Part shown: positions 5,305-51,696 of the stretch, piece after piece
How positions within the stretch are numbered: position 1 is the stretch's first letter
How the letters are laid out: every line of letters starts with the position of its first letter
From: Escherichia phage mEp010
DNA: 53,791 bases
Reading direction: 5' to 3' (one strand)
Sequence record: PP180001
Position numbers and translations under genes: made by a program
Notes under the pieces: generated by a model
Database searches by the model: none
Told to the model about the DNA's origin: nothing
Seen by the model: only the letters and a program-made list of their open reading frames with translations

Positions 5305-5894
5305 TATGTCATTACCTCATGTTTACAAAATGTATTTTCGATTGGTAAAGAAATGCCGTGATTACTATGAAAGTTATATATTCTTTCTGCTTCTTTTCTT
5401 GCTTTCACGGCATCATCAAACGAATCACCGTAATAAACGTATATTGTTTTCTTTTTACCATCAGATCCCCTTATACCTATTTGCGCCCGCCATTTATGGG
5501 TTTTCTTGTTCCATGTAACGCCAACGCACCCACTAGTGTTATTTGATGGCATTATTTTATTTCTGTTATTTTCCTGCCTTGTTACCATTCTTAAATTTTC
5601 GATCCTATCGTCACCAGGGATATGGTTTATGTGGTCTATTTCCATTCCATCAGGAATAGGGCCGTTAAACATTTCCCAAATAATGCGGTGACGCCATGTA
5701 CAACAGATACCATTAACGCAGATAGTCCAATAGCCGCGATGATGCTTACTTCCAGCCACGCTACCTGCTTTTATTTTGTTATTTGCGCGGTTACAAGACC
5801 AATATAGAACGCCGTTCTTATAGGTAAATAAATCATCCCACATCATGACATCCCACCATTTCAGGTCTATATACAAAGCGACCAATTTCGCCAT
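5304..5894 (-). CDS. HNH homing endonuclease (HNH plus AP2-like domain)
   Basis: 196 aa; DHINHIPGDDRIENL...NNRNK HNH motif, GYW..CVNG and SGCVGVTWNKKTHKWRAQI AP2-like repeats; wedged between replication genes, overlapping both neighbours. Confidence 0.8.
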   Translation of the reverse strand: MAKLVALYIDLKWWDVMMWDDLFTYKNGVLYWSCNRANNKIKAGSVAGSKHHRGYWTICVNGICCTWRHRIIWEMFNGPIPDGMEIDHINHIPGDDRIENLRMVTRQENNRNKIMPSNNTSGCVGVTWNKKTHKWRAQIGIRGSDGKKKTIYVYYGDSFDDAVKARKEAERIYNFHSNHGISLPIENTFCKHEVMT

Positions 5895-6963
5895 AATCAG
5901 GACTGTAAATTATAACCGCCGCGCAACGTTGCGATCGCCAGCCTCCATTAGTTGAATAAGCGTCTTTTCCCGCTAACGTGCCGTGGTGTTCAACTATGCC
6001 TATAGATGATTCTATTACTGATTTATGGTGCAAATGTCCGACATGGACGTAAACATATTTCGACTTGCCAAAGTCTTCCCGCCAGTCAGACACACAAGCA
6101 GACAATAAATTTTCAGGTTTTTTGATTGTGTGTCCGTGGTGGTAAGCAAGGAATGTTTTGCCGTACTGTGTGTGGTGGACGATGGCAGGGGACACATCAA
6201 CCGTCACGCGCGGTTCATCTTCGTAAAAAGCCGCCAGCGCCGCACGTAGCCAGATCATTCCTGACTGGTCGTGATTGCCTGATAACACTTGGATCTCGAC
6301 GTCTTTGTGGTTTAACAACATCTTTCCAACAGCCCGCCGGACCGAACGGATCGCCACATAAACAAGTTTTGCGTAGCGTGAATCGCAATCAAGTACGTGA
6401 TTGCTTGATGGCGTAACTGGCAACAGTCCGTCAGTGTGAAGAACATCCCCGCCGAGAAGCAATACGGCTTTTTCAGACATCGGAGCAGCGCCTACAGCGT
6501 AGTCAAAGAAGTCATTCAATACGCGCTCAGCGATCCCAGTGTCGTAGCTCTCGCCGCATTCAGCTTTGTGGGCAAGTGCCCCGATATGCAAATCAAATAC
6601 CGGATAAAGGGCCAGGCTTTTTTGAAAATCAATTTCAGGCACTGGCACTGCCTCCGCGCGTGGTATTTCTTCCGTGAATGCGTCGCGGGCAGCTTCCATT
6701 AGCCTTTCCATTTCATCGCGGTCACGGGCTGTTTTAATCCAGCGCATGACCGTATTCCCAGCCTTATCGACAAGAACAGATTCACCAGTAACGCCAAAAC
6801 CCGGCGCGCGGCGCGTTGATAATAAACCGCGTTTCGCCAGCTTTGCGCCCAGCCGCTCGACGTTGCGTTTTGACATGCCATATTTTTCAGCGATCTGTTT
6901 ATACGTCAGACCGTTGTTATATTCAGCGATCAATTGCTCATCGCTGATTTTTCTTTGCGACAT
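5833..6963 (-). CDS. N-terminal HTH fused to calcineurin-like metallophosphoesterase
   Basis: 376 aa; HTH (LTYKQIAEKYGMSKRNVERL) then phosphoesterase motifs DLHIG, GGDVLHTDG, GNHD, GHLHH. Confidence 0.65.
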   Translation of the reverse strand: MSQRKISDEQLIAEYNNGLTYKQIAEKYGMSKRNVERLGAKLAKRGLLSTRRAPGFGVTGESVLVDKAGNTVMRWIKTARDRDEMERLMEAARDAFTEEIPRAEAVPVPEIDFQKSLALYPVFDLHIGALAHKAECGESYDTGIAERVLNDFFDYAVGAAPMSEKAVLLLGGDVLHTDGLLPVTPSSNHVLDCDSRYAKLVYVAIRSVRRAVGKMLLNHKDVEIQVLSGNHDQSGMIWLRAALAAFYEDEPRVTVDVSPAIVHHTQYGKTFLAYHHGHTIKKPENLLSACVSDWREDFGKSKYVYVHVGHLHHKSVIESSIGIVEHHGTLAGKDAYSTNGGWRSQRCAAVIIYSPDYGEIGRFVYRPEMVGCHDVG

Positions 6964-7124
6964 AATGTTAATTCCTCCGGTTTACAGAATGTATATTTAT
7001 TTTCCGTAAAACGCGCTACAACGCAAAAATCCACCGCGTAACCCACTTGTAAGGGTGCAGTGTCTTTTTTGCGCCAGAAGCGCAATCAGGTGGCTAATTT
7101 TTGATTTACAGACTGGTAGGTAGG

Positions 7125-7226
7125 TTATGGATTGACAAGAAGGAACAAACCGCCGAACAAAACCACGTTAACAGCGATTGCAGCGGCGATGGCAAAAGCC
7201 AGGGCGAAAACGTGTTTACCGTCCAT
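7125..7226 (-). CDS. Possible 33-aa hydrophobic micropeptide (MDGKHVFALAFAIAAAIAVNVVLFGGLFLLVNP)
   Basis: Small ORF with AGAGG-type SD in the 400-bp gap between replication genes; speculative. Confidence 0.2.
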   Translation of the reverse strand: MDGKHVFALAFAIAAAIAVNVVLFGGLFLLVNP

Positions 7227-7360
7227 TTTCGAAATCCTCTCTGTAACGCTCTATAACGAGCTAATCGCAAAAAGGTAAGCAAGTGTAGCACCACATGCGA
7301 TTTATCTCGCTGGCGAGCTTGTTTTGCGGGTTATTTTGGGTTTTTGTGGATCGTGGTTGG

Positions 7361-8368
7361 TCAAAGAGCGCCACATCGTGTATCACGTAGCGTTTTTGGT
7401 TTAAGCAGGAAATCAAGTGTCGCTATGAAGCCATTGCCGAAGTAAAAATCTGAAGCCGTGTTTTTGAACGTTTCAAAGTAGGCGACAAAGCCGTTGATGC
7501 TTTTGTCTTTCAGGTAGTCAGTGAACGCATAAATCTTGCGTTCAAGATCCCGATCCAGTTCGGCAGGTGGCAACAGGCCATCAAACGTGCTGTTAAATGC
7601 CTCCACTACGTCGGCAGCGTTTGCAGTGGCTGACAGTTTGCGCCATTTTTCAGCATCAGCCAGATACCCATCAAATTTAGTTACCCGGCAAATGTTTATA
7701 GGCTTAGGTGTTCCACCACGGCTACGCCATTGTGTTAAAGCCCACTCAATCACTAACGTGATCTCACCCTCCGTATACGCTTTACGTGTTTTTGTTTCTG
7801 TCAGTAGTTCTACGAATGGCTTAGCATCACGACATTTGCATCCTGCCTTGTCGTTGTAGAAGGCCAGGCAACGCAATGCCGCCAGGTTAACCTCCCGATC
7901 TTCTTCGCTGATAGACCGGTCTTTTTCCAATACACGGAGTGTATTGTTTTTAATGTTCTCTTTACTGGTTATATATGACTGGTTAGGGTGACTCTGTGAC
8001 ACTACCCCCGGTGACTCTGTGTCACTACCCCGGTGACTCTGTGTCACTACCCCCGGTGTCACTGTGACACTACCATGCAATGACGGAAGGACTATTACAT
8101 AGAAATTACTAGTTTGCTCTTTTCCTCCGATTAAATATCTTGGTTGTTTAATCAACAACCCTTTTTCACAAAGTGAGTCTACAGCCCTCATAGCTGTTCT
8201 TTTGCTGATCTCACACTCCTTTGCTATGTGATGGTAAGAAGGATAACACTCTCCGTTATCATTAGCGTTATCAGCTAACTTCAACAGCACCAGTTTGTGC
8301 ATTGGGTCGCCGACCTCAGTATGGAAGACCTCTACCATTAGCCGCATACTCATAAGCATTAACCTCAT
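7361..8368 (-). CDS. Replication initiator (O-like; winged-HTH N-domain, origin iterons inside gene)
   Basis: 335 aa; iteron array embedded in the coding sequence as in lambda O; adjacent to helicase. Confidence 0.7.
   Translation of the reverse strand: MRLMLMSMRLMVEVFHTEVGDPMHKLVLLKLADNANDNGECYPSYHHIAKECEISKRTAMRAVDSLCEKGLLIKQPRYLIGGKEQTSNFYVIVLPSLHGSVTVTPGVVTQSHRGSDTESPGVVSQSHPNQSYITSKENIKNNTLRVLEKDRSISEEDREVNLAALRCLAFYNDKAGCKCRDAKPFVELLTETKTRKAYTEGEITLVIEWALTQWRSRGGTPKPINICRVTKFDGYLADAEKWRKLSATANAADVVEAFNSTFDGLLPPAELDRDLERKIYAFTDYLKDKSINGFVAYFETFKNTASDFYFGNGFIATLDFLLKPKTLRDTRCGAL
7986..8074. repeat. Origin iterons: four tandem ~22-bp repeats (GGTGACTCTGTGTCACTACCCC), each with a GTGAC-N5-GTCAC palindrome, flanked by an AT-rich stretch (7940-7985)
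   Basis: Seen directly; encodes the GVVTQSH-repeat linker of the initiator. Confidence 0.75.
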
Positions 8369-8374
8369 GACGAA

Positions 8375-8620
8375 CTAAAACATTAACTGATAAACGCAGA
8401 AGAAACCTGGCAGCTGGCTGATTAGGCCGCTTCTTTTCAGTTGATGCAGTGCAGAGATAGTGTCGCGTAACGAAATTTCGCACATTTCCGCGATCTCTTC
8501 TGGCGTTACTTCGCTTTTGCCGTTGCATCCAGCCTTTGTTGCCAGTGCAATTAAGATGAGTTTTTGCGCCGGATCATTGTTATTCAGGCGAATATCAAAA
8601 GCCTTGCGCACGTAATACAT
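8375..8620 (-). CDS. Winged-HTH regulatory protein at the Cro position (paralogous to initiator N-domain)
   Basis: 81 aa; first gene of leftward operon, divergent from repressor; HTH segment EEIAEMCEISLRDTISALHQLKRSGLI parallels the initiator N-terminus. Confidence 0.55.
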   Translation of the reverse strand: MYYVRKAFDIRLNNNDPAQKLILIALATKAGCNGKSEVTPEEIAEMCEISLRDTISALHQLKRSGLISQLPGFFCVYQLMF

Positions 8621-8727
8621 ATTCTTTCTCCTATGATTAGAGTGAACGCGCGGGCGGGCATCCCATTAGCATTAGATAGCAGTGACTGACCGCTCAACAG
8701 ATCCCGCCGTTGCGTGATATTTGTTTT

Positions 8728-8761
8728 TCGCTTCGCAGCGACACCAGATTTTTAAAGAGCT
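8728..8761 (-). promoter_or_regulatory. nutR-like site (boxA AGCTCTTTA plus boxB-like hairpin) on the leftward transcript
   Basis: Minus strand reads GCTCTTTAAAAATCTGGT then hairpin TCGC-TGCGAA-GCGA; same 15-mer as the nutL-like site. Confidence 0.5.
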
Positions 8762-8769
8762 TAAGGAAT

Positions 8770-8923
8770 TGGCCTTTTGTGCTTTCCTTTATCTTTTTTC
8801 TTGCATCATTGCAACTATGGCCTTACCTTGTCTGCAAGTTTACATAATGGCTTTAACAGGTCAAGGCTTGAAAAACACGTTTTGTGACTTGCATCAAACT
8901 TTTTTAGGTTATAGGGTAGCGAC
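8770..8923. promoter_or_regulatory. Divergent immunity-region promoter/operator segment
   Basis: Leftward TTGACC-16-TAAACT (8837-8864, minus); repressor ATG only ~10 nt after a TTATAG -10-like hexamer (leaderless-type); repeated CTTGCATCA half-sites at 8800-8808 and 8888-8896. Confidence 0.4.
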
Positions 8924-9571
8924 ATGAAAACAAAATGGTATGACTTAGCAAAGCAGCTCATGCGGGCGCAGGGCATGAGTCAGGATTCATTGGCTGATCT
9001 CATGGGGATAACCAAAGGTGGCCTTTCGCACTGGCTGAACGGTCGCCGTGAGCCAAATCTTGAAGATATTGCGCGGATCATGCGGGCGCTTGGGCGTCGG
9101 CAGTTTACTGTCACACATGACGGGATGGTTATCGATGATTCTGTTTCTAACACGTTACCGGGAGCGCCACCGCGTGATTTAGGCAGTTACCCGGTTGTTG
9201 ACTGGAAGGATGTAGCAAACAATATGGAAGGCACATGCCGATCAACATTGCCACACATTACTACTAGCGTTATTTGTTCGGATGATAGTTATTGGCTGGT
9301 TGCTAAAGGTGAATCAATGAACGCACCGCAGGGGTTAAGCATCCCGGCGGGGACTATGATACTCGTTGACCCGCACGCGCCAGCTATTGACGGAAAACTT
9401 GTTATAGCACAACTGGAGGAAGGGCAGATACCTACGTTTAAACAGTTGATTATTGATGGAGGCCGAAAACTTTTGCGTTCACTGAATCCGTTGTATCCGC
9501 CGATCCCTATGAATCCAGAATCAAAAATCATAGGCGTGGTGGTTGATGCGAAGATCGTAAACCTGCCATAA
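8924..9571 (+). CDS. cI: CI/C2-type lysogeny repressor (HTH plus S24 LexA-like peptidase domain)
   Basis: 215 aa; C-terminal domain resembles P22 C2/lambda CI (GESMNAPQGLSIPAGTMILVDP, KLVIAQLEEGQIPTFKQL, KIIGVVVDAKIVNLP). Confidence 0.9.
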   Translation: MKTKWYDLAKQLMRAQGMSQDSLADLMGITKGGLSHWLNGRREPNLEDIARIMRALGRRQFTVTHDGMVIDDSVSNTLPGAPPRDLGSYPVVDWKDVANNMEGTCRSTLPHITTSVICSDDSYWLVAKGESMNAPQGLSIPAGTMILVDPHAPAIDGKLVIAQLEEGQIPTFKQLIIDGGRKLLRSLNPLYPPIPMNPESKIIGVVVDAKIVNLP

Positions 9572-9577
9572 ACAATA

Positions 9578-9601
9578 GCCGCCGGATGGCGGCTTTTCTT
9601 T
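9578..9601 (+). terminator. Rho-independent terminator after repressor gene
   Basis: GCCGCC-GGAT-GGCGGC hairpin followed by TTTTCTTT. Confidence 0.7.
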
Positions 9602-9695
9602 GTCTGAAAAAACACCAAAACGTAAACAGAAAACGCTATTTATTGTTTAAATATCAATAGCATATAAAATATTTTAAAAAAGTATACAAAATGGA

Positions 9696-9724
9696 TTGAC
9701 TTGGTGTTTTACGGGGCGTATATT
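9696..9724 (+). promoter_or_regulatory. Rightward early promoter (PL-equivalent): TTGACT-17 bp-TATATT
   Basis: Near-consensus sigma-70 hexamers with 17-bp spacer; recurrent motif GTATACAAAATGG abuts the -35. Confidence 0.65.
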
Positions 9725-9978
9725 GCGAATCAAAGGAAGGGCGTAGGTAACAAAAGCAGCTTCCTGGCACTTTAAAAATCAGGCTTAACACCTTGTCAAC
9801 CGTGGAGTAACTCCCCAATGGGGGACCGAAAGCGGCACTGATAACAAGGCGCATGGGGTGTTTAAAGCGTTACATCCCCCACGAAACCGCACGCAGGGCG
9901 ACGAGTCAGCTTGCTTGGAGTGAGCAAGGTCACGCCGGGAACGGCGATGATTGCGGGATTAGTTGAAAGATGTTAAGC

Positions 9979-10016
9979 CGCTCATTAAAAATCTGGTCAG
10001 CCGCTGGAAGTGCGGC
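9979..10016 (+). promoter_or_regulatory. nutL-like site (boxA CGCTCATTA plus boxB-like hairpin GCCGC-TGGAAGT-GCGGC)
   Basis: 58 nt upstream of the N-like gene; shares GCTC(A/T)TTAAAAATCTGGT with the nutR-like site. Confidence 0.55.
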
Positions 10017-10073
10017 AATTAACGAAGATGATTTTTTTATTAAGTATCATCAAGGATATACGGAGATCAGATT

Positions 10074-10364
10074 ATGAGCGTTACAATTATGTATGGAAAA
10101 TGTGATAGCAAAATGAACGCCAGGGAACGCAGAAGGATAAAAAGAGAAAACGAAAGAAAATCATCACCTGCAATTAATAAAACAGACAATGTGGATAAAG
10201 CTATTCGATTTGCAAACGAGGAAAGGTGCAAACCAAATAGCATTAAAGAACGTCGCAAAGGTTCAGTAAAATGGTATACGGAAAATGAAAGCGGCAACTA
10301 CTACCACGCAACGCAACCACGCCATTTAGGGGAGAAACCCCTGGATAAAGTCCGTTACCATTAA
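10074..10364 (+). CDS. N: N-like antitermination protein (arginine-rich motif)
   Basis: 96 aa; N-terminus MSVTIMYGK..NARERRRIKRENERK parallels P22 gp24 / lambda N ARM; first gene after the nutL-like site. Confidence 0.7.
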   Translation: MSVTIMYGKCDSKMNARERRRIKRENERKSSPAINKTDNVDKAIRFANEERCKPNSIKERRKGSVKWYTENESGNYYHATQPRHLGEKPLDKVRYH

Positions 10365-10513
10365 TACAAAATGTAAACATTCGGAGGTTACATTATGGTT
10401 ATCGAGGCGCTTCAATTCAAACTGGCAGTAGCGGAAATGCTTCATGATGCCGAAATGTGGAGCGCCGCGAATAAAGCCTTATACATAGTGTTAACAGCGA
10501 AGGAGATTAAAGA

Positions 10514-11155
10514 GTGAAAACAGAGTTACACAAAAAGCTGTGGACGATTCAACAAACGTTGAACGCGCCGAAAAATCAGCGTAATAATTTCGGTGGGTAC
10601 AATTACAGGTCGGCGGAGGATATTTTAGAGGCGGTTAAGCCACTGCTTCAAAATATCACGCTGACTGTTAGCGATGAAATCGTCCTGATCGGCAATCGCT
10701 ATTATGTGAAGGCCACAGCTACGCTAAGCGACGGCGAAGATGAAATTGCGGTAACTGCTTACGCCAGGGAAGAAGAAAGCAAGAAGGGAATGGACGCAAG
10801 CCAGTTAACTGGCGCGACATCAAGTTATGCGCGTAAATACGCGTTGAACGGATTGTTCTGTATTGATGATGCGCGAGATCCTGATACTGACGCATACGCC
10901 AAGCAGACAGGCCAGCAGCCTCGCCAACAGAAAAATCCACCAAAACAACAACCACAGCCGCCGAAAGCGCCGCCAAATCCTGATGAAGTATTAGCACGTT
11001 TCTGTGATGCGGCAGCGAAAGCGCCGGACGCTAATAAGTTGCGCGAGATATTCGGGAAGTGCTGGAAGCTACTTCCTAAAGATTCAGAGCAGCAACAGAA
11101 AGCAAAAGACTGTTATGACATTCGCTTAAAAGAGCTTAAAGGGGAGATCAGTTAA
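10514..11155 (+). CDS. erf: Erf single-strand annealing protein
   Basis: 213 aa, GTG start after AAGGAG; close match to remembered P22 Erf (LNAPKNQ..F..Y.YRS.EDILE.VKPLL, DEIVLIG.RYYVKATAT, QLTGATSSYARKY). Confidence 0.9.
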   Translation: MKTELHKKLWTIQQTLNAPKNQRNNFGGYNYRSAEDILEAVKPLLQNITLTVSDEIVLIGNRYYVKATATLSDGEDEIAVTAYAREEESKKGMDASQLTGATSSYARKYALNGLFCIDDARDPDTDAYAKQTGQQPRQQKNPPKQQPQPPKAPPNPDEVLARFCDAAAKAPDANKLREIFGKCWKLLPKDSEQQQKAKDCYDIRLKELKGEIS

Positions 11156-11574: not shown

Positions 11575-11589
11575 ATCAATAGGTTAGCG

Positions 11590-13755: not shown

Positions 13756-13854
13756 CAGCGTGATTGCGATCACATAAATATACATTTTGTGTTGTGATCG
13801 CGTATCCGTTTTGTGAACTGAAATCAAAAGGTTTACAGCGCGGAGGAAAGCAAG

Positions 13855-17340: not shown

Positions 17341-17499
17341 AGTTTACAAAATGGCGTCATTGCGTGATGTGGATCACATAATGGCGCTTTTCACCTTGTT
17401 CTGGTGTATCCATTTTGTATACTTCAAACAAGCAAAATGCTCTTTAAAAATCCGGCAGCGCTGAAATGCGTAGAAATCACCTGAAAAGGAGAGAGCATT

Positions 17500-23110: not shown

Positions 23111-23209
23111 AAAGCGTGATCTACCTCGCAAAGTATACGAAATGGCATTGTTTCGGCAGTGCCGTTTTGTTATATATAAGTCAAAGAAGACGGAAGGGGA
23201 GACAAGAAA

Positions 23210-25191: not shown

Positions 25192-25220
25192 TTGTGGGTC
25201 GAAAACAAACAGATTAAAAT
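25192..25220 (+). promoter_or_regulatory. Candidate late promoter (PR'-like): TTGTGG-17 bp-TAAAAT
   Basis: Lies 8 nt after the last small gene and ~30 nt before a terminator hairpin, i.e. promoter then short terminated leader upstream of lysis genes, as at lambda PR'-tR'. Confidence 0.45.
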
Positions 25221-30217: not shown

Positions 30218-31588
30218 ATGCCATCCAATTTAGAATTGGCGGTTAATGCTGCCTTGTCACAACGCCAGGCTGCCTATGCCCGCTATGCCGCAGCCAACCC
30301 ATTCACTATGGGGATAGATGCAAAACGTGATGCCGCATGGAGTGAATACGGATTCAAAGAAGAGATCACGTATGACGATTTATACAAACTGTATCGTCGA
30401 GGCGGTATAGCTCACGGTGCTGTGGAAAAGATTGTTACAACTTGCTGGCGCACCATGCCAACGCTAATTGAAGGAACGGAAGACGAGAAAGCCGAAAAGG
30501 AAACACCATGGGAAAGAGAAATCAAGAAACAATTCGACAACAGATTTTGGCGCATTATTGCCGAATGTGACCGCCGCCGCCTCATTGGTCGTTATGCTGG
30601 TCTGTTGATTCATGTCAGAGATAACCAGCCGTGGGATCGTCCTGTGACAAAAGGCGTAGGCATTGCCAAATTTACCCCGGCATGGGCTGGTGCTCTTACT
30701 CCGAAGGAGTTCGAAGAAGACCCGAACAGTGAAAACTATGGCCTGCCGACGTGGTGGGAATACAAAGAACGCATTAACAGTAAGACCATAGCCAGAAGGA
30801 TCCACCCTGACAGAATATTCATATTTGGTGACTATTCTGATGATGCTATCGCTTTTCTTGAGCCGTCCTATAACGCCTTTGTGTCACTGGAGAAAGTGGA
30901 AGGCGGTAGCGGTGAATCGTTCCTGAAAAACGCTGCCCGTCAGCTTGCTATCTCATTCGATAAGGAAATTGATTTCCGCTCCCTGGCCGCTACATACGAT
31001 TGCGACGTTACAGAGTTACGCGAAAGATTTAATGAGGCAGCGGCTGAAATGAATAAGGGTAACGATGTGATGATGGCATTACAAGGGGCAACAGTAAGCC
31101 CGCTGGTGACTGCCGTATCTGACCCTTCAGCAACCTATGACGTCAACCTGCAAACCGCCGCCGCTGGTATTGATATTCCGACCCGCATCCTGGTTGGGAA
31201 CCAGCAGGGAGAACGCGCATCAACCGAAGACCTGCGCTACTTCAACAGCCGCTGTATGACCCGCAGGGAGGAAATCGGTGGTGAGCTTGAAGATCTGTTT
31301 AGCAAGATGGCAGCGCTACGCCTTATCAGTATGCCAGTTGATATATCAGTGATATGGGACGACCTGAACGCCATTACCAAAGCCGAACTACTGGAAGCGG
31401 CATACAAAATGGCACAAATCAATCAGGCTTGTCTGGCTACTGGTGAAGAAATATTTAGCGGCGATGAGATCCGTGAGGCCGCCGGATACGATGGCCCAGC
31501 CAGTGAAGTAGAAACGGAAGAGGAGGACGATGATGAGGGTGAAGAAGATAATCAGGCGAATACCTCCAGCCGCGATAATGCCATCTAA
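30218..31588 (+). CDS. Portal protein
   Basis: ~456 aa after AGGAG SD; acidic C-terminal tail; position after terL. Confidence 0.7.
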   Translation: MPSNLELAVNAALSQRQAAYARYAAANPFTMGIDAKRDAAWSEYGFKEEITYDDLYKLYRRGGIAHGAVEKIVTTCWRTMPTLIEGTEDEKAEKETPWEREIKKQFDNRFWRIIAECDRRRLIGRYAGLLIHVRDNQPWDRPVTKGVGIAKFTPAWAGALTPKEFEEDPNSENYGLPTWWEYKERINSKTIARRIHPDRIFIFGDYSDDAIAFLEPSYNAFVSLEKVEGGSGESFLKNAARQLAISFDKEIDFRSLAATYDCDVTELRERFNEAAAEMNKGNDVMMALQGATVSPLVTAVSDPSATYDVNLQTAAAGIDIPTRILVGNQQGERASTEDLRYFNSRCMTRREEIGGELEDLFSKMAALRLISMPVDISVIWDDLNAITKAELLEAAYKMAQINQACLATGEEIFSGDEIREAAGYDGPASEVETEEEDDDEGEEDNQANTSSRDNAI

Positions 31589-37658: not shown

Positions 37659-38348
37659 GTGACAGTTATGATTCATGTTCGAACAGGACAATTTGCGGTT
37701 GTGGTTGATGGCAGACGTTACGAGTTCAATCCCTGCTTTGCTGCAATGGCTAAGATCGGCAGCGACAGGGAGCTGGTAGAATACTTCGCAACGGTGCACG
37801 GTGGCAGATACCCACAACGTTTGCCAACTGATTCAGACCTCCGCAATCGCATTCTGGCGCGTTGTTATGGTGAACTTGTGCAAACGTCCATCCACGTACT
37901 GAAATGTTGCTCAGAATGCGAAATAGGCCCGTTATTGGGCGAATGCAGCTTTACCCCTTCTGGTAAGTTAAGACTAAAACCTGGATTGATGCCCACCAGC
38001 GACGTTATCACACTGGCGCAACACTGCATGTATCACGGTTTAATTGGTGACGGACCAGATGAGGACACTGGCGAGGAGCAGGAAGGCGACTATAAACAGA
38101 CGTTTGACATCCTTGAATACGTTTACTCCGCCGTTGCTCACCTGGGGTTATCTGAATCTGAAGCATGGGGCATGACAATGACCGGATATAGGGCAGCTGT
38201 ACGCGCTAAAACGCCACCAGACGAAAGAAAAGAGACAGGTAAGCCAAACGTTCATATAAATAAACGTGATTATGATGAGCAAATGGAGGCCGCTAAAAGG
38301 GTGCTGGAATTGATGAAAAAACGCGAGCAAGAAAAAGCCCGGGGTTAG
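37659..38348 (+). CDS. Tail assembly chaperone (putative)
   Basis: Position between major tail and tape measure genes; acidic segment; no frameshift site identified. Confidence 0.4.
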   Translation: MTVMIHVRTGQFAVVVDGRRYEFNPCFAAMAKIGSDRELVEYFATVHGGRYPQRLPTDSDLRNRILARCYGELVQTSIHVLKCCSECEIGPLLGECSFTPSGKLRLKPGLMPTSDVITLAQHCMYHGLIGDGPDEDTGEEQEGDYKQTFDILEYVYSAVAHLGLSESEAWGMTMTGYRAAVRAKTPPDERKETGKPNVHINKRDYDEQMEAAKRVLELMKKREQEKARG

Positions 38349-38388
38349 CCGGGCGTTATATGTCGATGATGCTTTTTGATAGTGCCTA

Positions 38389-38904: not shown

Positions 38905-39060
38905 TTTCTTATCCTCTTTTGCTTCCTCCGGTTAATCCGGCCTTCTAAATCCCTTTACTCTATCCCTTTCCTTTAGCCTCTTTATACAAAATGTATTCGT
39001 TGAAGTGAAGCCATTTTGTATAAAATAGAGATCAGGATCACACTTTTACGAGGTTAAATC

Positions 39061-41409: not shown

Positions 41410-41441
41410 ACAAAAACCCCGGTACAATGCCGGGGTTATCT
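41410..41441. terminator. Bidirectional rho-independent terminator
   Basis: CCCCGG-TACAAT-GCCGGGG hairpin with A-run upstream and T-rich downstream; separates tape measure gene from minus-strand cassette. Confidence 0.7.
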
Positions 41442-42381: not shown

Positions 42382-42553
42382 ATTGGCCCCCTTTGTTGGT
42401 ACTGCTTTCTCTTCTTGCTTTCTGTATACATCTTGTTGCGTCCTGTGTGAAGCCATTTCGTAAACTGGGTATAATTCTTGTGACGAAGTTATCATTTTTC
42501 GCGTAGAAGCGCGTAAAGATGTATGCAATATGTAACTTATGATGGGGGAAATC

Positions 42554-43107: not shown

Positions 43108-43137
43108 AAACAACCCCGCGCGAAGCGGGGTTTTTCT
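43108..43137. terminator. Bidirectional rho-independent terminator (same hairpin as at 51247-51263, inverted)
   Basis: CCCCGC-GCGAA-GCGGGG hairpin plus TTTTT. Confidence 0.7.
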
Positions 43138-43544: not shown

Positions 43545-43895
43545 CTATTTATCGAATGCAGACAAATTGTCGATACAGAAGTCTTTAGCAGCCTTTTCGT
43601 ATTCGCGTTTTGCTTCTGGATTGTCAGCCGGGAAACCTTTTGCGTGTATTTCACCAGGGCAAGATTGATCCATAGAGTCTGCAAAGTTAACATTGGCGTT
43701 GAAGTTAATATCTTTCGGGTTCATCTCTTCCACCTTATCCGGCACTTGGACCGGAGTAATATCAAAATCACGAGCGTTAGACCAACAGCGAAGTAATTCA
43801 CGACCTTCATCACGAGCTGCGACATATGTATCAAACAGCCCCATGCGCTCCCATTCACATTTATCAGTCCATATTTCTAAACTGTATTTTTGCAT
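43545..43895 (-). CDS. Hypothetical protein (116 aa)
   Basis: Track ORF; start codon embedded in recurrent motif GTTTAACAAAATGC. Confidence 0.55.
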   Translation of the reverse strand: MQKYSLEIWTDKCEWERMGLFDTYVAARDEGRELLRCWSNARDFDITPVQVPDKVEEMNPKDINFNANVNFADSMDQSCPGEIHAKGFPADNPEAKREYEKAAKDFCIDNLSAFDK

Positions 43896-43907
43896 TTTGT
43901 TAAACTC

Positions 43908-44063: not shown

Positions 44064-44191
44064 ATCACACCTCCGCGCCATTTTGTTAACCCTGCTTCCT
44101 TTTGAGTACAATATACATATTGTAAAAAACGCGATCAACCGTTTTGGTATGATTTGGCGTGACAGCGATCACAAAATGACAAGGTGAAAAA

Positions 44192-44896: not shown

Positions 44897-44898
44897 TT

Positions 44899-45630: not shown

Positions 45631-46103
45631 ACGTTGATACGCCAGCACAAGGACTTCGCTTATTGACCGCACAGAATCAGGAGTTCAAGAAGGCTTTTTT
45701 AAGCACACCATTGCGCTTACGAATTGCCGGGAAAGATTATGACGAAAAGACCGCGCCAGCAGCGGTTAACAGTAAATACCCTGACGGGACTACCGTCATT
45801 GTTGCGCCAGTGGTGGAAGGCGGTATTGCAGGGATTGGCGTTGTAGGCTGGATTTTGATCGGTGTTTCGGTTGTTAGCGTTGCGTTCTCGATCTTCATGT
45901 CACGCAACATGAAGATAAAAACATCAGCAGAAAGCGCACAAGATAACACCATATCTAACAACACATACACCAGCGTTGAAAACAAGGTTGGCCAGGGTAG
46001 ACCAGTGCCGATCCTGTTGGGTGAAATGAAAATAGGTTCAAACGTCGGATCGTTAGGCATAGACACAAGTAATAACAAAGACGCCTTAGACGTTGTAAGT
46101 TAA
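45573..46103 (+). CDS. I: Tail assembly protein I
   Basis: Resembles lambda gpI, Gly/Ala/Ile-rich hydrophobic centre; overlaps K as in lambda. Confidence 0.75.
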   Translation: MLKFRLTGNLRRYYGKVCLNVDTPAQGLRLLTAQNQEFKKAFLSTPLRLRIAGKDYDEKTAPAAVNSKYPDGTTVIVAPVVEGGIAGIGVVGWILIGVSVVSVAFSIFMSRNMKIKTSAESAQDNTISNNTYTSVENKVGQGRPVPILLGEMKIGSNVGSLGIDTSNNKDALDVVS

Positions 46104-46116
46104 CAGGAGAAAAGCC

Positions 46117-49100
46117 ATGAGTAGCGGCGGCGGCAAAGCCAAAACACCAACATTATTAAACGATAACCTGTATCATAAACAGTTTTATCGTGTTTTAGAC
46201 ATTCTCAGTGAGGGGCCAATATACGGCCCTGTAAACCAGAAAGCGCCATTAAACAGCGTAATGCTTAATGACACGCCTATCACTGACGCCAACGGTAATA
46301 CATCAGTCCCCGGCGTTAGCGTGGCGTGGCGCAATGGTACGGCTGACCAGTCACCAATCAACGGCTTCAACGCCATTGAATCAACCGTTATTGTCAACGC
46401 AAAAGTAACTCACGATACACCAATAATCAGGACCATTTCAGATCCCAACGTTAACCGCGTAAGGCTGAATCTTGGCGTCGATTCTCTGGTTCAGTCAGAT
46501 GATAAGGGCAATCAGTACAATACATCCGTCACGTTGATGGTTGATGTTAAGCCTTCATCTTCAACAACGTGGTCACTGGTTAAAGATATTCACATCGGCC
46601 CGGGTAAACAAAGCGGCGAGTACCTCGAAGCGCACATCATCAAAGCGCCGGATGAAAAACCGTTTGATATTCGCGTTCGTCGCGTAACGCCGGACAGCAC
46701 GGGAGATCTTCTTCACAATGATACCAGGTGGAGCAGTTACAGCGAGATAATCGACGATAATTTATCTTATCCTCACACCGCTGTAGCAGGCGCGGTAATT
46801 GACCACGATCAGTATACTGACACGCCGACACGCACCTATCACATGCGTGGTCTGATTGTTGATGTCCCTGATAACTACGACCCGGAAACGCGCACGTACT
46901 CAGGTTTATGGCTTGGTGGCTTTAAAAAGGCGTACACCAATAACCCTGCATGGCTTTTCCGGTATCTGGTTAAAAATGAACGCTTCGGGCTTGCCCGCCA
47001 CGCTGGTTACATCGACATTGATGACGGAGCACTGTATACGCTTTCTCAATACTGCGACCAGTTGGTAAACGACGGTTACGGCGGCTTTGAACCTCGCATG
47101 ACGCTTAATGCTTACATCACTGAGCAAATGAGCGCCCGCGACCTACTGGATAATATTGCAGGCATGTTCCGTGGTATCGCGTTATGGGACGGGCAGCGCC
47201 TTACGGTGATGATTGATGCACCGCAGGATCCAATTGCCACCATCACAAATGCCAATGTCGTTGATGGCGCGTTTACTCGTTCAAGTATCGCCCGCGCAGA
47301 ATCTTACAACGCCGTGATCGTGTCATGGACTGACCCGGAAAACGGTTGGGAACAATCAAAAGAATACGTGGCAGATGACGAACTGATCGCCCGCGATGGT
47401 TACAACGAAACCACGTTGGAGGCTTTCGGTTGCACGTCACGCGGGCAGGCGTACCGCGCTGGCAAATGGCTGATAGAAACAGCAAAGCGCGAACCATCAA
47501 AATTCACGTTTAAAATGGCCCGTGACGCAATTCACTTCACACCAGGGGATATTATCGAGATACTCGACAATAACCGCGCTGGCGCTCGTTTGGGCGGTCG
47601 TATCGTGGCGAATAACGGGAAGGTTATAACTGTAGACAAGGTTGATTCTGACCTGGTGGCGGCTGGTGACACTATCAGCTTGCTGGATAGCGACGGCAAG
47701 TTTAAAAAACATCAGATCACTGGAGTTAACGGAAACAATATTACCCTTGCAGCCGCGCCAGCATGGATTCGCAACGGAACCGTATTTGCTGTTTCTACTG
47801 AATCCGCAAAACCTGTTCTGTGTCGAATCACCAGCGTAGCAGAAACCGAAAATAACAGCGTGTACACCATCGAGGCTGCGCAGCATGATACGCACAAACA
47901 GGCCGTAGTTGATGAAGGCGCGATCTTCGAGGTAAACAACGACACGCTTAATCACTTCCGCGTGCCGAACATTGAAAACCTGAAGGTGTTAAATGTTGGT
48001 TCTGAAACTGTTCAATGTCGCGCTACATGGGAAACACAGACGACAACGCATCGCCTGACCTTTGAGATCCGCGTATATAACGCGGAAGGCCGAGTGGTGG
48101 CAGCTTATGAAACAACGAATTACCGCTATGATTTTTATGGCCTCGATGCTGGCAGCTACACGCTTGGTATTCGCGGTCGTAATGACACTGGCATGAAGGG
48201 GGCGGAAAGTATTGTGGACCTAGTTATTGGTGCGCCAGCGGCCCCGATTGGAGTTAATTGGGTTCCCGGTGTTTTCCAGGCAACAGTGTACCCAATCAGC
48301 AAAACAACCCTGACCACTGATACGGCATATGAGTTCTACTTCTCAGGTGAAAACCAGATCACAGACCCATCAAAAGTAACCACGCTGGCGCAGTTCACCG
48401 GGCGCGGCTACCAATGGACGTTTGGCGGCATGAATACGGGCCACACATATTACGTTTATGTGCGCACACGCAATGCTTTTGGCGTGTCTGACTTTGTGGA
48501 GGCATCAGGTAAGCCTACAGAGAATTTTGATGAAATCAGTGACTACGTCACAAAAGACGTGATTAATTCAGAACAGTTTAAAGGGATGATTGGCGACATT
48601 AAAGATCTAGGCGACCGCGCAGACCTTATCGAAAGCGCTACAAATGACCTTAAAAACGCTACTGACAGCCTCAAAACTGCAACTGATAACCTGACAAACA
48701 TCACTGAAGATTTGAGGACTGACACGGACGGCCTAATCACAGAAACTGGGGCCATAAAAGCTGATACGGACACACTGAAAAAAGAAACGGAAGATCTTTA
48801 TAAAAAGGTTGGGGAAAACACCGATGGTATTGGACAACATGAGGTAAGAATTGACTCGCTAGAGGTATCCAGCGAAAGAATCGACAGCGAACTGGCGCAA
48901 GCAAAAGCAAGCCTGCAAAACGCATCTTTGGCGCTAATCAATAACTCGCTTGCACAGACCAACACGCGGGTTACGCTCACTGCACAGTACAAGAAAGGGA
49001 AATCAGAAACCAACGCGCAAATTGACCGCATTGACAACGTTATTGCTGAAGAGAAAAAGGCTACAGCTGAATCACTGAAAACCATCACTGCAGAAATGAA

Positions 49101-51240
49101 CACGATGGATTCTAACCTCAAAAGTCAGATCTCCAGTGTGGAACGTGCAGTGGCTGACGAAACAAGTGCCCGCGCTGAAGCAATTAACAGCGTGAACGCA
49201 TCAATAAGCAATCTCGACAAGAAAACCGACGCCAGCGTGAACCGCCTTGATCAAGCCATCGCAGACGAAACAAGCGCCCGCTCACAGGCTATCAGCGGCG
49301 TGAATGCGTCAATAAGCAATCTTGAAAGCAAAACAGACGCCAGCGTTTCACGTCTTGATAAGGCAATATCTGACGAAACGCAGGCAAGAAGCGACGCAAT
49401 AACAGAGGTCAAAGCTGATTTAACAACGCTCGAAAGTAACACAAACGCCAGCGTTAAACGCTTAGACCAGGCTATTGCTGACGAATCAAGCGCCCGTGCT
49501 CAGGCTATATCTGGAATCAGCGCCGAACTTGGCAAGGTTGAAAATAACGTTGACAAGAACAGCGACGAAATAAGCCAGACCAAAGCAAGCCTGCAAAACG
49601 CCTCGATTGCGCTGATTAACAACTCAATCGCTCAAACCAACACGCGTGTTACGCTTACGGCCCAATACAAGAAAGGACGCAGCGAAACCAACGCGCAAAT
49701 TGACCGCATTGACAACGTTATTGCTGAAGAGAAAAAGGCTACAGCGGAAGCAGTTAGCGTGGTGAAAGCATCGATCACGGATCTTGATAAGAAGACTGAC
49801 GCGAGTGTTTCCCGTCTCGACAAGGCTATCGCTGACGAAACCAGCGCACGCAGCGAGGCGGTAAGCGACGTTAACGCAAGCGTTTCAGCGCTCGACAAGA
49901 AAACCGACGCCAGCGTTAAACGCCTGGACCAGGCAATTGCAGATGAGACAAGCGCAAGAACTGAAGCTATCAGCGGTGTGAACGCAAGCATTAACACGCT
50001 TGAAAGCAACACTGAATCTGAAGTTAACAGAATTGACCAGGCAATCGCTGACGAGGCCAGCGCCCGCGCTCAGGCCATCAGCGGCGTGAACGCATCAATT
50101 TCCACGCTTGATAGCAAGGTTACAAGCAACGTGACCCGCATCGACAAGGCCATTGCAGACGAAACGAAGGCACGCACTGACGCAATAAGTAGCCTTAATT
50201 CATCGCTTACCAGTACGATTAACTCGAAGGTGTCTGAGGTATCAACGGCGCTTTCTACACATGAAGCATCAAGCGCGGAAAAATTCGGCCAGATCTCAGC
50301 GTCTTTCGAATCCGTAAACTCAAGTATTACAGAATGGTCGCAGGCCATGACAACCGCTGACGATGCATTGTCAACCAAAATTGATCAGTTAACAGTAACC
50401 GTTAACGGGAACACAACGGCGATAGAGACAACATCGAAAGCGTTAACAGACTTCAAAGGCAATGTTGATGCGTCGTACTCTATCAAGCTGGCAACCGACA
50501 ACAACGGCATGAAGTACGCGACAGGTATGTCGCTTGGCCTTACTGGTGACGGCACTAACTTTCAATCGCAGTGTATTTTCCTGGTTGACAGGTTCGCGCT
50601 AATGACTGCGGCAAACGGCACATATCAAACGCCTTTCTATATCGAAAATGGTGCAATGTATGTACGGGAAGCGTTTATTAAAAACGGTTCAATCGACAAT
50701 GCAAAAATAGGCAATGTCATAACGTCCTACAACTGGAACGGCAACGATCAAGGGTGGGCGATAGTTAAAGATGGCTGGGCTGTATTTAACAACGTTACAG
50801 TACGCGGCACGGTATACGCTAATGCTGGGGTGTTTAACGGTACTGTTTACGCAAATGACGGTAAATTCTCTGGAACAGTGGAGGCAAATTCATTTATCGG
50901 TGATGTTGCAAATATGTACACAGGATCTGACGTTAGCAGGTCAAACAATGGTGTACTTCAAAAAGTAATTACATATACAGACACAACAGCAGCAGCCCAC
51001 AGGAGACATATTTGCGTTATGGCAAACGTTAAAGGTAACGGTGCTTGCACAGTAAACATTAACGGATCAGAAAAGGGCTTGTCTGTAAATGATAATGAAC
51101 GGCTTATCATGCACTCTGCGGCGGTATATGGACAGAACGTTACAGTAGTGATTAGCATATCCGCTCAGAATGGTAGGGGTGCGTATATATTCTCACCGAC
51201 CGTTATAGTATCGCGCGGCTCTGGTTCATTCTCTGGATAA
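46117..51240 (+). CDS. J: Central tail fibre / host specificity protein J (expanded, 1707 aa)
   Basis: N-terminal and C-terminal thirds resemble lambda gpJ; ~540-aa internal coiled-coil repeat insertion. Confidence 0.85.
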   Translation: MSSGGGKAKTPTLLNDNLYHKQFYRVLDILSEGPIYGPVNQKAPLNSVMLNDTPITDANGNTSVPGVSVAWRNGTADQSPINGFNAIESTVIVNAKVTHDTPIIRTISDPNVNRVRLNLGVDSLVQSDDKGNQYNTSVTLMVDVKPSSSTTWSLVKDIHIGPGKQSGEYLEAHIIKAPDEKPFDIRVRRVTPDSTGDLLHNDTRWSSYSEIIDDNLSYPHTAVAGAVIDHDQYTDTPTRTYHMRGLIVDVPDNYDPETRTYSGLWLGGFKKAYTNNPAWLFRYLVKNERFGLARHAGYIDIDDGALYTLSQYCDQLVNDGYGGFEPRMTLNAYITEQMSARDLLDNIAGMFRGIALWDGQRLTVMIDAPQDPIATITNANVVDGAFTRSSIARAESYNAVIVSWTDPENGWEQSKEYVADDELIARDGYNETTLEAFGCTSRGQAYRAGKWLIETAKREPSKFTFKMARDAIHFTPGDIIEILDNNRAGARLGGRIVANNGKVITVDKVDSDLVAAGDTISLLDSDGKFKKHQITGVNGNNITLAAAPAWIRNGTVFAVSTESAKPVLCRITSVAETENNSVYTIEAAQHDTHKQAVVDEGAIFEVNNDTLNHFRVPNIENLKVLNVGSETVQCRATWETQTTTHRLTFEIRVYNAEGRVVAAYETTNYRYDFYGLDAGSYTLGIRGRNDTGMKGAESIVDLVIGAPAAPIGVNWVPGVFQATVYPISKTTLTTDTAYEFYFSGENQITDPSKVTTLAQFTGRGYQWTFGGMNTGHTYYVYVRTRNAFGVSDFVEASGKPTENFDEISDYVTKDVINSEQFKGMIGDIKDLGDRADLIESATNDLKNATDSLKTATDNLTNITEDLRTDTDGLITETGAIKADTDTLKKETEDLYKKVGENTDGIGQHEVRIDSLEVSSERIDSELAQAKASLQNASLALINNSLAQTNTRVTLTAQYKKGKSETNAQIDRIDNVIAEEKKATAESLKTITAEMNTMDSNLKSQISSVERAVADETSARAEAINSVNASISNLDKKTDASVNRLDQAIADETSARSQAISGVNASISNLESKTDASVSRLDKAISDETQARSDAITEVKADLTTLESNTNASVKRLDQAIADESSARAQAISGISAELGKVENNVDKNSDEISQTKASLQNASIALINNSIAQTNTRVTLTAQYKKGRSETNAQIDRIDNVIAEEKKATAEAVSVVKASITDLDKKTDASVSRLDKAIADETSARSEAVSDVNASVSALDKKTDASVKRLDQAIADETSARTEAISGVNASINTLESNTESEVNRIDQAIADEASARAQAISGVNASISTLDSKVTSNVTRIDKAIADETKARTDAISSLNSSLTSTINSKVSEVSTALSTHEASSAEKFGQISASFESVNSSITEWSQAMTTADDALSTKIDQLTVTVNGNTTAIETTSKALTDFKGNVDASYSIKLATDNNGMKYATGMSLGLTGDGTNFQSQCIFLVDRFALMTAANGTYQTPFYIENGAMYVREAFIKNGSIDNAKIGNVITSYNWNGNDQGWAIVKDGWAVFNNVTVRGTVYANAGVFNGTVYANDGKFSGTVEANSFIGDVANMYTGSDVSRSNNGVLQKVITYTDTTAAAHRRHICVMANVKGNGACTVNINGSEKGLSVNDNERLIMHSAAVYGQNVTVVISISAQNGRGAYIFSPTVIVSRGSGSFSG
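48880..50250 (+). repeat. In-frame tandem repeats inside J (about ten ~36-aa/~110-bp units; plus a ~170-bp block duplicated 678 bp apart at ~48904 and ~49582)
   Basis: Units of form DASV.RLD.AIADETSAR..AISGVNASIS.L.SKT; antisense track ORFs here are repeat artefacts. Confidence 0.7.
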
Positions 51241-51270
51241 ACAAAACCCCGCTTCGCGCGGGGTTTTCTT
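51241..51270. terminator. Bidirectional rho-independent terminator between J and the lipoprotein gene
   Basis: CCCCGCTTCGCGCGGGG hairpin plus TTTTCTTT. Confidence 0.75.
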
Positions 51271-51519
51271 TTAGTAGTTAGCTACACAATTAGAAGGGCT
51301 ACCGATGCGGCGCATATTGTGATCGAGTTCATGACACCATTGACCAGTATAAGGCAGTTTTTCAGTGTCATAGACAAGATGACCACTACCATCATAAACA
51401 ACATCCTGTGGAATTACTCCGCTATTCGGCAGGTTATGCAATGCAGCCTCTTTGTCAACAGCACAACCAGTAAGAGCTACAGCCGCAGCGAACAAAACCA
51501 CTTTGAATACGTTTTTCAT
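51271..51519 (-). CDS. Small lipoprotein (moron; candidate superinfection-exclusion or outer-membrane factor)
   Basis: 82 aa; signal peptide with lipobox LTGC; opposite strand between J and side tail fibre gene, the slot where lambdoid phages carry lom/cor-type morons. Confidence 0.65.
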   Translation of the reverse strand: MKNVFKVVLFAAAVALTGCAVDKEAALHNLPNSGVIPQDVVYDGSGHLVYDTEKLPYTGQWCHELDHNMRRIGSPSNCVANY

Positions 51520-51696
51520 CTTTGAATCCTCATTCTTGTTGGTTCATCCGGTTTATCCGGTGACTTGAATATCCGACAAAACCACATTTCGTATATTGAT
51601 ATAAATCAACAAATACATTTTGTGTAAGCAGAAAATGCAACATAGATCACAAAATGGTAGAATTATTCCGTTAATTAACATAATGGAGTCATTGCG

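Follow-up and report, generated by a model that had tools for sequence, protein, structure and literature searches.

The question raised by this locus is which protein, if any, reads a short sequence that recurs across the genome of Escherichia phage mEp010. The window, by which we mean the whole stretch of 53,791 nucleotides that was analyzed (PP180001), contains this sequence at many gene starts and promoters. The preliminary description of the window had treated it as a ~13-bp repeat and had proposed a binding site for a phage or host regulator, an UP-like promoter element or a conserved start context, perhaps linked to the acquisition of gene cassettes. Recurrence in both orientations was confirmed, but the length was not: the true unit is a 17-bp pseudo-dyad, GTWTACA-NNN-TGTAWAC, with a 3-bp A/T-rich centre. 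As argued below from comparative evidence, this unit is probably the operator of Rep (8924-9571), a repressor of the lambda CI type.

The window belongs to a temperate coliphage of the mEpimmI group, with 90-93% identity to mEp044, mEp013, mEp021, mEp515 and mEp554 in megablast searches. Thirty-five related prophages were found among complete E. coli genomes, and the gene layout agreed with the annotated mEp021 and mEp044 records. The group was described recently: Rep021, the homologue of Rep in mEp021, confers immunity, and Gp17 acts at nutL, nutR1 and nutR2 (PMC11893012). That report (2025) left the operators of Rep021 undefined, did not mention the repeat, and stated that the helix-turn-helix (HTH) probably reads other sequences than that of lambda CI (PMC11893012). 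A literature search with the motif sequence returned unrelated primers only.

Enrichment of the Motif and Its Restriction to the mEpimmI Group

All 14 coordinates listed in the preliminary description hold the sequences claimed for them, and the motif is indeed far above chance. TACAAAATG matched 10 times in the window against 0.90 expected, and none of 100 shuffles reached 10. GTWTACARAATGK with at most one mismatch matched 12 times (0.75 expected) and TACAWWWTGK 17 times (2.85 expected). The palindromic form TACANNNTGTA (TACA-NNN-TGTA) was present six times against 0.70 expected, so that the near-palindromic character ascribed to some copies was confirmed for several. Among the 9-11-mers of the window the motif was the most enriched once low-complexity ones had been set aside.

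A position weight matrix (PWM) for the 13-mer was built from 11 copies. Scores of at least 16 bits defined a strong class of 12 copies (5321, 6980, 8838, 9682, 17342, 23133, 31400 and 38982, and on the minus strand 17410, 39011, 42453 and 44078); weaker variants formed a tail. Ten of the 12 strong copies were wholly intergenic, although intergenic DNA, taken from a hand-curated gene list, makes up 9.6% of the window (binomial P = 3.7e-9); the mostly intergenic location noted before was thereby upheld. The 11th lies in the last codons of an HNH-endonuclease open reading frame (ORF). The remaining one, GCATACAAAATGG at 31400-31412 (16.4 bits), lies inside the portal gene. It is conserved in relatives, but is probably fortuitous and retained through coding constraint, not as an operator.

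For comparison with other phages, IMG/VR loci were fetched around Rep homologues (47 loci) and around the minor tail gene (80 loci). The motif occurred in 90 of 90 mEpimmI loci, with 471 matches of at least 15 bits in 1.70 Mb (0.28 per kb). No motif match was seen in 39 loci of other phages (0.68 Mb), which had been retrieved via distant homologues of the minor-tail protein and of Rep. Clustering of the flanks assigned the copies of the group to about 20 independent sequence contexts. The motif was invariant or nearly so in the immunity region, where the close relatives are too alike for fine phylogenetic footprinting; the neighboring promoter spacers varied among relatives. Across ten families, columns within the motif were 0.97 conserved versus 0.84-0.86 in the flanks, a figure inflated by the PWM-based selection of copies. 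In the window about 22 sites are spread over 46 kb, from 5321 to 51690.

The Unit Is a 17-bp Pseudo-dyad

In relatives that have the motif at a gene start, the 13-mer stands 16 nt away from the ATG in one orientation and 20 nt away in the other. The unit was identified as a 17-mer because only in a 17-mer frame is the 16-nt distance to the ATG constant in both orientations. At the start of the gene for a 376-amino-acid (376-aa) protein, for example, relatives have ATATACA TTC TGTAAAC or ATATACA AAA TGTATAC in the same place. Positions C5 and G11 are invariant. Most copies combine a good arm, GTWTACA, with a degenerate arm, TGG[A/C]T, that usually overlaps a -35 hexamer; one arm is often degenerate because the same bases must serve the -35 or -10 hexamer.

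A model consisting of the two 7-bp arms alone gave seven sites of at least 14 bits against 0.3 expected and added sites with non-A centres, notably 9707-9723 and 10479-10495. In the 17-bp frame the copies described earlier at 13780-13790 and 51649-51658 kept their positions, but their extents had to be enlarged to 13778-13794 and to the weak copy 51645-51661, respectively. The sequence reported at 43892-43905 is present, but it scored only 11.7 bits and may be due to chance plus coding. Copies missing from the earlier list are the strong one at 42449-42465 and those at 9707-9723, 10362-10378, 10479-10495, 13802-13818, 42424-42440, 44111-44127 and 51580-51596.

Sites at the Immunity Region Promoters

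The features around the repressor gene are listed here; all transcription starts given in this paper are inferred from matches to promoter hexamers, and the 17-bp sites are called operators in a predictive sense.

Integrase gene, then the leftward early operon: small HTH gene, replication gene, 376-aa gene, HNH gene and DnaB-type helicase gene
8375-8620, minus strand: small winged-HTH gene in the Cro position, first in the leftward early operon, with weak matches to HTH_36 and HTH_Crp_2
8838-8854, plus strand: operator GTTTACATAATGGCTTT, over the spacer and -10 of predicted PL, centre about -16
8864-8837, leftward: predicted PL, TTGACC-16-TAAACT, with a boxA/nutL-like sequence downstream
8924-9571, plus strand: gene of the CI-type repressor Rep, with a terminator after it
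9682-9698, plus strand: distal PR operator GTATACAAAATGGATTG, its last 3 nt being the TTG of the -35, centre about -41
9696-9724: predicted PR, TTGACT-17-TATATT
9707-9723: proximal PR operator TTTTACG GGG CGTATAT, a dyad over the -10 that starts 25 bp after the distal one
Rightward operon, with the gene of an N-like antiterminator first

The statement that the copy at 9682 abuts the -35 of the rightward early promoter was correct, as its final 3 nt form the TTG of this hexamer. Sites are present on both of the predicted early promoters that an immunity repressor has to govern. The site 9682-9698 was invariant among 35 distinct relatives, and its architecture is that of the early promoters of two prophages described below (L134 and L135). 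The dyad at 9707-9723 ranked 9 among 53,775 positions in the arm-only model, and ACG..GCGTATAT is conserved in relatives. At PL, the motif at 8838-8854 was kept and the adjoining spacer was variable among 28 distinct relatives. The centre of the PL operator also falls near -42 of a weak rightward promoter candidate; a better-conserved candidate for the rep promoter, TTGTGA-17-TAGGTT, places it at -71. That the PL operator also stimulates rep transcription is speculation.

Three further observations concern the leaders of these promoters. The first ~30 bases transcribed from predicted PL (8795-8829, minus strand) and PR (9724-9758) look alike by eye (TTGCAGACAAGGTAAGGCCATAGTTGCAA versus TTGCGAATCAAAGGAAGGGCGTAGGTAACAA), which may reflect a leader RNA element common to both or an additional DNA site. 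The boxA-like sequence GCTCTTTAAAAA and variants of it are found at 8745-8757 (minus strand), 9768-9781 (plus strand) and 17438-17450 (plus strand), just 3' of three operator-guarded promoters; the three positions agree with the published nutL, nutR1 and nutR2. From PR to the N-like gene (9764-9964), only about 60-85% of relatives share the stretch, the flanks of which are nearly invariant, and this nutR1/leader region seems to have two alleles.

The Motif Follows the Recognition Helix of Rep

Rep matched Pfam HTH_3 (5e-13) and Peptidase_S24 (1.7e-18), and aligned with the lambda repressor 3bdn over residues 15-208, i.e. over both domains (E = 1.6e-18). The comparison with heterologous phages comprised one diverged lineage and four further loci. 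The diverged lineage (L130-L132) is syntenic with the window. Its Rep homologue (P0008) is 56-57% identical to that of the window, but the identity is unevenly distributed: 100% in the region of helices 2-3, 36% in the linker and 57% in the C-terminal domain. The gene in the Cro position of these loci encodes a 75-aa HTH_3 protein unrelated to its counterpart in the window (BLASTP E = 6.6). These loci nevertheless carried the motif at a density of 0.29-0.34 per kb, with copies in the interval from the cro-like gene to rep, directly against the -35 of PR and at gene starts.

Rep homologues with 43-51% identity were found in unrelated prophages of Enterobacter (L134), Tatumella (L135) and Citrobacter (L133) and in a metagenome contig (L136). 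Among the genes checked, these four loci share with the window only the Rep homologue and generic lambdoid gene families; L135 is a classical lambdoid phage with CII, O, DnaB and N genes. L134 and L135, the recognition helices of which are similar to that of the window, each have three dyads in the cro-cI interval (GTATACR TTT CGTATNN, ATATACA TTT TGTGTCT and KWATACR NNT YGTATKA) and two or three dyads at the promoter before boxA or N (GTATACA TTT TGTATTG, GGATACG TTT TGTATAT), with operator spacings of 25-26 and 33 bp. L133 (9921-9999) and L136 (2926-3000) carry TAATACA-NNN-TGTATTA dyads in the same operator positions. Their recognition helix reads TQGGLGHW versus TKGGLSHW (K-to-Q, S-to-G); possibly, helix and operator changed together at outer half-site positions. 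The symmetric core WTACR-NNN-YGTAW was confined to the immunity region in L133-L136, with one exception, and was scattered in the window. Rep-like proteins of 37% identity in L047-L049 belong to unrelated phages without the motif, and these loci are uninformative on the binder.

In an ungapped alignment of PR of the window with the early promoters of L130, L134, L135 and mEp021, TATACA..TG..TTG(-35)..AC..GTATA.T(-10) was invariant. The distal/proximal pair of the window is therefore the counterpart of O2/O1 at a conventional lambdoid early promoter, which argues that, at least at PR, sites at -41 would act in repression rather than activation.

Two other phage regulators could be considered as the binder, namely the winged-helix protein in the Cro position (8375-8620) and the HTH-containing 376-aa protein (5833-6963). 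Each has an HTH signature and is conserved within the close group, and lambda Cro shares the operators of CI, making a second binder besides Rep plausible. However, L130-L132 retained the motif with an unrelated protein in the Cro position, and in L133, L135 and L136 the dyad stands beside the Rep homologue, yet other mEpimmI genes are missing from the called neighborhood. L134 likewise has dyads in canonical positions beside rep, and its locus begins 208 bp upstream of rep, gene content farther upstream lying outside it. We thus regard it as unlikely that one of these proteins is the reader instead of Rep. Because the motif tracks the HTH of Rep across relatives and not the gene in the Cro position, the proposal of a phage regulator is supported by this comparative link and narrowed to the CI-type repressor.

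Putative Operators Elsewhere in the Genome

Outside the immunity region the window has Q, lysis, head and tail genes; three short cassettes on the minus strand interrupt the tail region. The further operators are the following.

5321-5337, plus strand: 16 nt upstream of the helicase ATG (5304, minus strand), abutting the Shine-Dalgarno sequence (SD)
6980-6996, plus strand: GTTTACA GAA TGTATAT, 16 nt before the start codon (6963) of the HTH-containing 376-aa gene
10362-10378, plus strand: operator-like dyad TAATACA AAA TGTAAAC, located where the N-like gene stops; mEp021 and mEp044 also have it
10479-10495: intergenic dyad TTATACA TAG TGTTAAC, 18 nt upstream of the erf start (10514)
13778-13794, plus strand: distal operator ATATACA TTT TGTGTTG of a predicted rightward promoter, nearly identical to OR2 of L134 and L135
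13802-13818, minus strand: proximal operator, an arm of which forms the -10 (TGAACT here, TAAACT in mEp021)
17342-17358, plus strand: right after the stop of the cytosine-methyltransferase gene, about 80 bp upstream of the start of the nutR2 promoter
17406-17422, minus strand: proximal operator of promoter TTGTTC-16-TATACT (17396-17423), which is followed by boxA/nutR2
23133-23149, plus strand: distal operator of predicted promoter TTGTTT-17-TATATA, present in mEp044, not in mEp021
38982-38998, plus strand: at two divergent overlapping promoters, distal for the tape-measure gene and proximal for a leftward moron
39007-39023, minus strand: partner of the preceding operator, starting 25 bp away, with the roles swapped
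42424-42440, plus strand: proximal operator GTATACA TCT TGTTGCG, covering the -10 (TATACA) of a leftward promoter, that of the second minus-strand cassette
42449-42465, minus strand: distal operator GTTTACGAAATGGCTTC of the second-cassette promoter, TTCACA-17-TATACA
42521-42537, plus strand: GTATGCA ATA TGTAACT, a decayed copy at a distance of 16 nt from the likely start of the minor-tail gene (42554); the sequence in relatives is ATATACAAAATGTAACT
44074-44090, minus strand: downstream of the start predicted for the leftward third-cassette promoter and ahead of the SD of the first gene in this cassette (ATG 44063)
44111-44127: proximal dyad ATATACA TAT TGTAAAA over the spacer and -10 of leftward TTGATC-17-TATATT (44138-44110)
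51580-51596, 51611-51627, 51645-51661 and 51674-51690: four weaker copies between the small minus-strand gene 51271-51519 and the tail-fibre gene (51697); no promoter could be assigned to this minus-strand gene or to the copies

Two geometries relative to the predicted promoters recurred. Proximal sites, centred at about -16, span the spacer and five bases of the -10, and their arm TAWAC supplies the hexamer; PL, the nutR2 promoter, 13802-13818, 42424-42440, 44111-44127 and both members of the 38982/39007 pair are examples. Distal sites, centred at about -41, have their last two or three bases within the -35, as seen for PR (9682-9698), 23133, 42449-42465, 13778-13794 and again both members of the 38982/39007 pair. 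At four promoters two sites form a pair, with a start-to-start distance of 25 bp (9682/9707, 38982/39007 and 42424/42449) or 24 bp (13778/13802). A third class lies inside operons, just 5' of the ribosome-binding site (RBS) of the helicase gene, the 376-aa gene, erf and the gene that opens the third cassette; the minor tail gene of relatives also has a copy in this place. Outside the late operon, an operator accompanied nearly every one of the strongest promoters predicted in intergenic DNA. The dyads at 10479-10495 and 6980-6996 shared the top score in the dyad model.

The distance of 16 nt stated for the copies upstream of two leftward genes was correct (helicase ATG at 5304, ATG of the next gene at 6963). 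The copy at 5321-5337 was kept with three different upstream contexts in relatives, and relatives have the motif at 6980-6996 with the opposite orientation of its A-tract. Read as internal promoters, the copies before the helicase and 376-aa genes would have a -10 that lacks T at -7 and a start inside or after the SD. The copy at 44076-44090 exists as well, but the ATG within it is probably not a start codon: the mEp021 homologue is annotated from the following ATG of the frame (44063), which stands after GGAGG.

The helicase and 376-aa genes have in common a duplicated module of ~33 bp consisting of operator, SD and spacer (5305-5337 and 6964-6996), with the ends …TGTAAAC ATGAGGTAATGACATA ATG (CGGAGG… in most relatives) and …TGTAAAC CGGAGGAATTAACATT ATG, respectively. 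A homing-endonuclease-like ORF with HNH_3 and AP2 (5304-5894, minus strand) is inserted between the two genes. Its reading frame runs across the operator to a stop codon that overlaps the ATG of the helicase gene (TAATG). At its position mEp021 has a different HNH gene and mEp044 has none.

Bidirectional terminator-like hairpins, GC-rich and with T-runs, are present at 38337-38354, 41415-41437 and 43112-43132, at the ends of the minus-strand cassettes of the tail region. Each cassette therefore appears to be an insulated unit with its own operator-guarded promoter. A link of the motif with cassette acquisition had been suspected. Copies do mark the junctions of modules, since every minus-strand cassette comes with, or borders on, an operator-guarded promoter of its own, but no evidence of motif-mediated insertion was found.

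The best sigma-70-like promoter before the holin gene (TTGTGG-17-TAAAAT, 25192-25220) is likely the Q-dependent late promoter. The motif map of the window showed no operator near this candidate. The lambda late promoter PR' is not known to be under repressor control, which the operator-free late promoter here matches.

CRP-like Sites beside the Putative Operators

The sequence GTGA-N6-TCAC, from the CRP consensus TGTGA-N6-TCACA, occurred six times in the window against 0.53 expected; matches at nine or more of the ten core positions numbered five against 1.6 expected. The following sites stand beside operators.

8883-8898: CRP-like site TGTGACTTGCATCAAA; it precedes the start predicted for PL by about 60.5 bp
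13759-13774, 17363-17378, 23115-23130, 39027-39042, 42479-42494 and 44158-44173: other CRP-like sites

The dominant offset of these sites from the centre of the proximal operator was +43.5 or +44.5 bp, in the window as well as in the group. At six promoters this puts the CRP-like site about 60 bp ahead of the predicted start, and at a seventh about 70 bp ahead. Before nutR2, most relatives have the perfect sequence TGTGA TGAATG TCACA. We take a placement at about -60, measured from predicted starts, to be the geometry of class I activation by CRP. This suggests that the operator-guarded phage promoters may be class I CRP-dependent, and the sites hint at a nutritional input.

Readings That Do Not Involve a Phage Regulator

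Could the motif be an element read by RNA polymerase, either an UP-like site for the C-terminal domain of the alpha subunit (alpha-CTD) or an extended -10 (CCATTTTG-TAWACT) inherited by duplicated promoters? The reversed motif supplies the -10 of PL, of the nutR2 promoter and of others, and the forward motif lies at -50 to -38, between the CRP-like site and the -35, where alpha-CTD is placed in class I promoters. We nevertheless consider this quite improbable. The site shows dyad symmetry, with C5 and G11 invariant; it is found not only at about -16 and -41 but also at about +21 and right before the RBS inside operons, and its orientation flips at the identical position in relatives. Moreover, the motif is missing from 680 kb of other phage loci, and relatives show a triple-operator arrangement. 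The UP-like element put forward in the preliminary description is not supported on these grounds. A reading as a -10 only, CCATTTTG plus TAWACT, was also tried; it suits PL and the nutR2 promoter and fails for copies upstream of a -35, downstream of starts or before an RBS.

A start-associated or linker sequence, which would aid translation initiation or provide short homology for the swapping of cassettes, has a similarly small chance of being the explanation. Several copies have a fixed distance of 16 nt to a start codon, the helicase gene and its neighbor have a common operator-SD module, and often one flank is conserved and the other replaced. However, only about 5 of 22 copies are near starts, the rest being 37-380 nt away, and both strand orientations occur at the same start, against a role at the RNA level. 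In the few cases that fit the conserved start context suggested earlier, the constant distance concerns the symmetric 17-bp DNA unit and not an RNA strand. Promoter and operator DNA that separates modules would in any case lie at junctions. A role as RNA hairpin or translational operator was rejected, as only the fully palindromic copies could fold and the orientation flips.

A host transcription factor is the least probable reader: the motif is AT-rich, genuine host-factor-like (CRP-type) sites are nearby, and it resembles in part the half-sites of ArcA, Fis, PhoP and TyrR, but it is group-specific and co-occurs with Rep homologues in operator positions of Enterobacter, Tatumella and Citrobacter prophages. 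To our knowledge none of the consensuses of ArcA, Fis, PhoP, TyrR, OmpR, RstA, IHF and DnaA, compared as plain consensus sequences, fits the invariant positions. A likeness of CCATTTTGTTAAC to the XerD arm of dif was dismissed, since the geometry of arm and spacer differs and the copies lie in promoters.

Comparison with Known Repressor Systems

As an operator, the site would be of the ordinary CI/Cro kind and lacks only the triple clusters; it is the dispersal that differs. Like lambda operators, it has 17 bp and pseudo-dyad symmetry, one arm being better than the other, and its inferred reader is an adjacent HTH plus S24 repressor homologous to CI. Sites overlap the -10 or -35 of two divergent early promoters, predicted here, that flank the repressor gene, and neighbors are about 24-26 bp apart, near 2.3 helical turns. 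The same motif is found in L130-L132, the helix region of which is identical, and GTATACA-type dyads occupy operator positions in L134 and L135, the helices of which are similar; L134 and L135 carry the full triple arrangement. In contrast to lambda, the window has no triple clusters, but one site at PL and two at PR (triples were seen only in L133-L136), and about 18 further copies extend over 46 kb, including the tail-gene region and the inside of operons. The lambda half-site TATCACC differs from that of the window.

Dispersed operators are familiar from phages P1 and L5. P1 C1 is not known to be related to CI or to belong to the S24 proteins, whereas the repressor here is CI-like. As in P1, about 20 17-bp sites of one repressor would be scattered over the genome, far from the repressor gene. 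P1 C1 has 22 dispersed 17-bp operators, through which numerous separate transcription units are controlled (PMC8546580). These operators are asymmetric (ATTGCTCTAATAAATTT), whereas the sites of the window are dyads. In L5 and other Cluster A phages a 13-mer occurs more than 20 times, at promoters as well as in the short gaps between genes of an operon, and for these copies blocking of initiation and of elongation has been proposed (PMC9283540). The window resembles mycobacteriophage L5 in its many copies at promoters and in spaces within operons (here 5321, 6980, 10479 and 44074). However, the L5 sites are asymmetric and are bound by a monomer with two DNA-binding domains, whereas those of the window are pseudo-dyads and Rep has an S24 C-terminal domain homologous to that of lambda CI. 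Orientation strictly follows transcription in L5; here it is set by the arm that overlaps the promoter hexamer and flips among relatives. Cluster K mycobacteriophages have a short start-associated repeat beside the RBS, at a fixed short distance upstream of some starts. Unlike these sequences, only a minority of copies in the window are at starts, and the symmetric DNA site also lies over promoter hexamers.

A Model for Repression by Rep

A Rep dimer would read the 17-bp site through its HTH. One or two operators would be present at each sigma-70-type promoter outside the Q-dependent late promoter, i.e. at PL, PR, an internal early promoter, the nutR2 promoter and the divergent promoters from the three minus-strand cassettes. 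In a lysogen, Rep at about -16 and -41 would occlude RNA polymerase. The pairs with a distance of 24-25 bp would permit CI-like cooperative binding via the C-terminal domain; in lambda CI, the S24 C-terminal domain mediates dimerization (PMC11893012). Single operators inside operons, before an RBS, would be roadblocks against read-through. Upon induction, RecA-stimulated self-cleavage of the S24 domain would free all sites together. Binding, repression, cooperativity and roadblocking by Rep are deduced here from sequence comparison. The protein in the Cro position may share the sites, as in lambda.

Several points weigh against Rep as the reader or against parts of this model. At PL a single operator is recognizable, and it has one good arm. 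G is favored at position 12 and the A-tract is polar, so that most copies are less symmetric than typical CI operators. The values -16 and -41 depend on the promoter model, since the starts come from hexamer matches. An operator that ends in the -35, with its centre at about -41, has the geometry of PRM activation by lambda CI, and some copies could activate. The model would silence cassette genes that might be expected to be active in lysogens, and it does not account for the copies that abut an RBS. Probable as it is that Rep reads the motif, we put forward only tentatively, as a possibility that falls short of probable, that this CI-type repressor is a genome-wide silencer with about 20 dispersed operators, roadblocks at gene starts and guards on every cassette promoter.

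An operator sequence and a map of about 22 sites are now proposed for a family whose operators were undefined (PMC11893012), and the promoters of the tail-region cassettes are placed in the putative regulon of the repressor. What would be new is a CI-type repressor deployed in a dispersed manner, as in P1 or L5, and not in the textbook two-cluster switch. If Rep were such a silencer, its specificity would be evolutionarily locked, as about 20 sites would need to change jointly. This lock would explain why the recognition helix is invariant despite divergence of Rep to 56% identity, and why an abundant family of gut coliphages has a single immunity group. If, in addition, most of these promoters were class I CRP-dependent, induction and cassette expression would be tied to the carbon status of the host.

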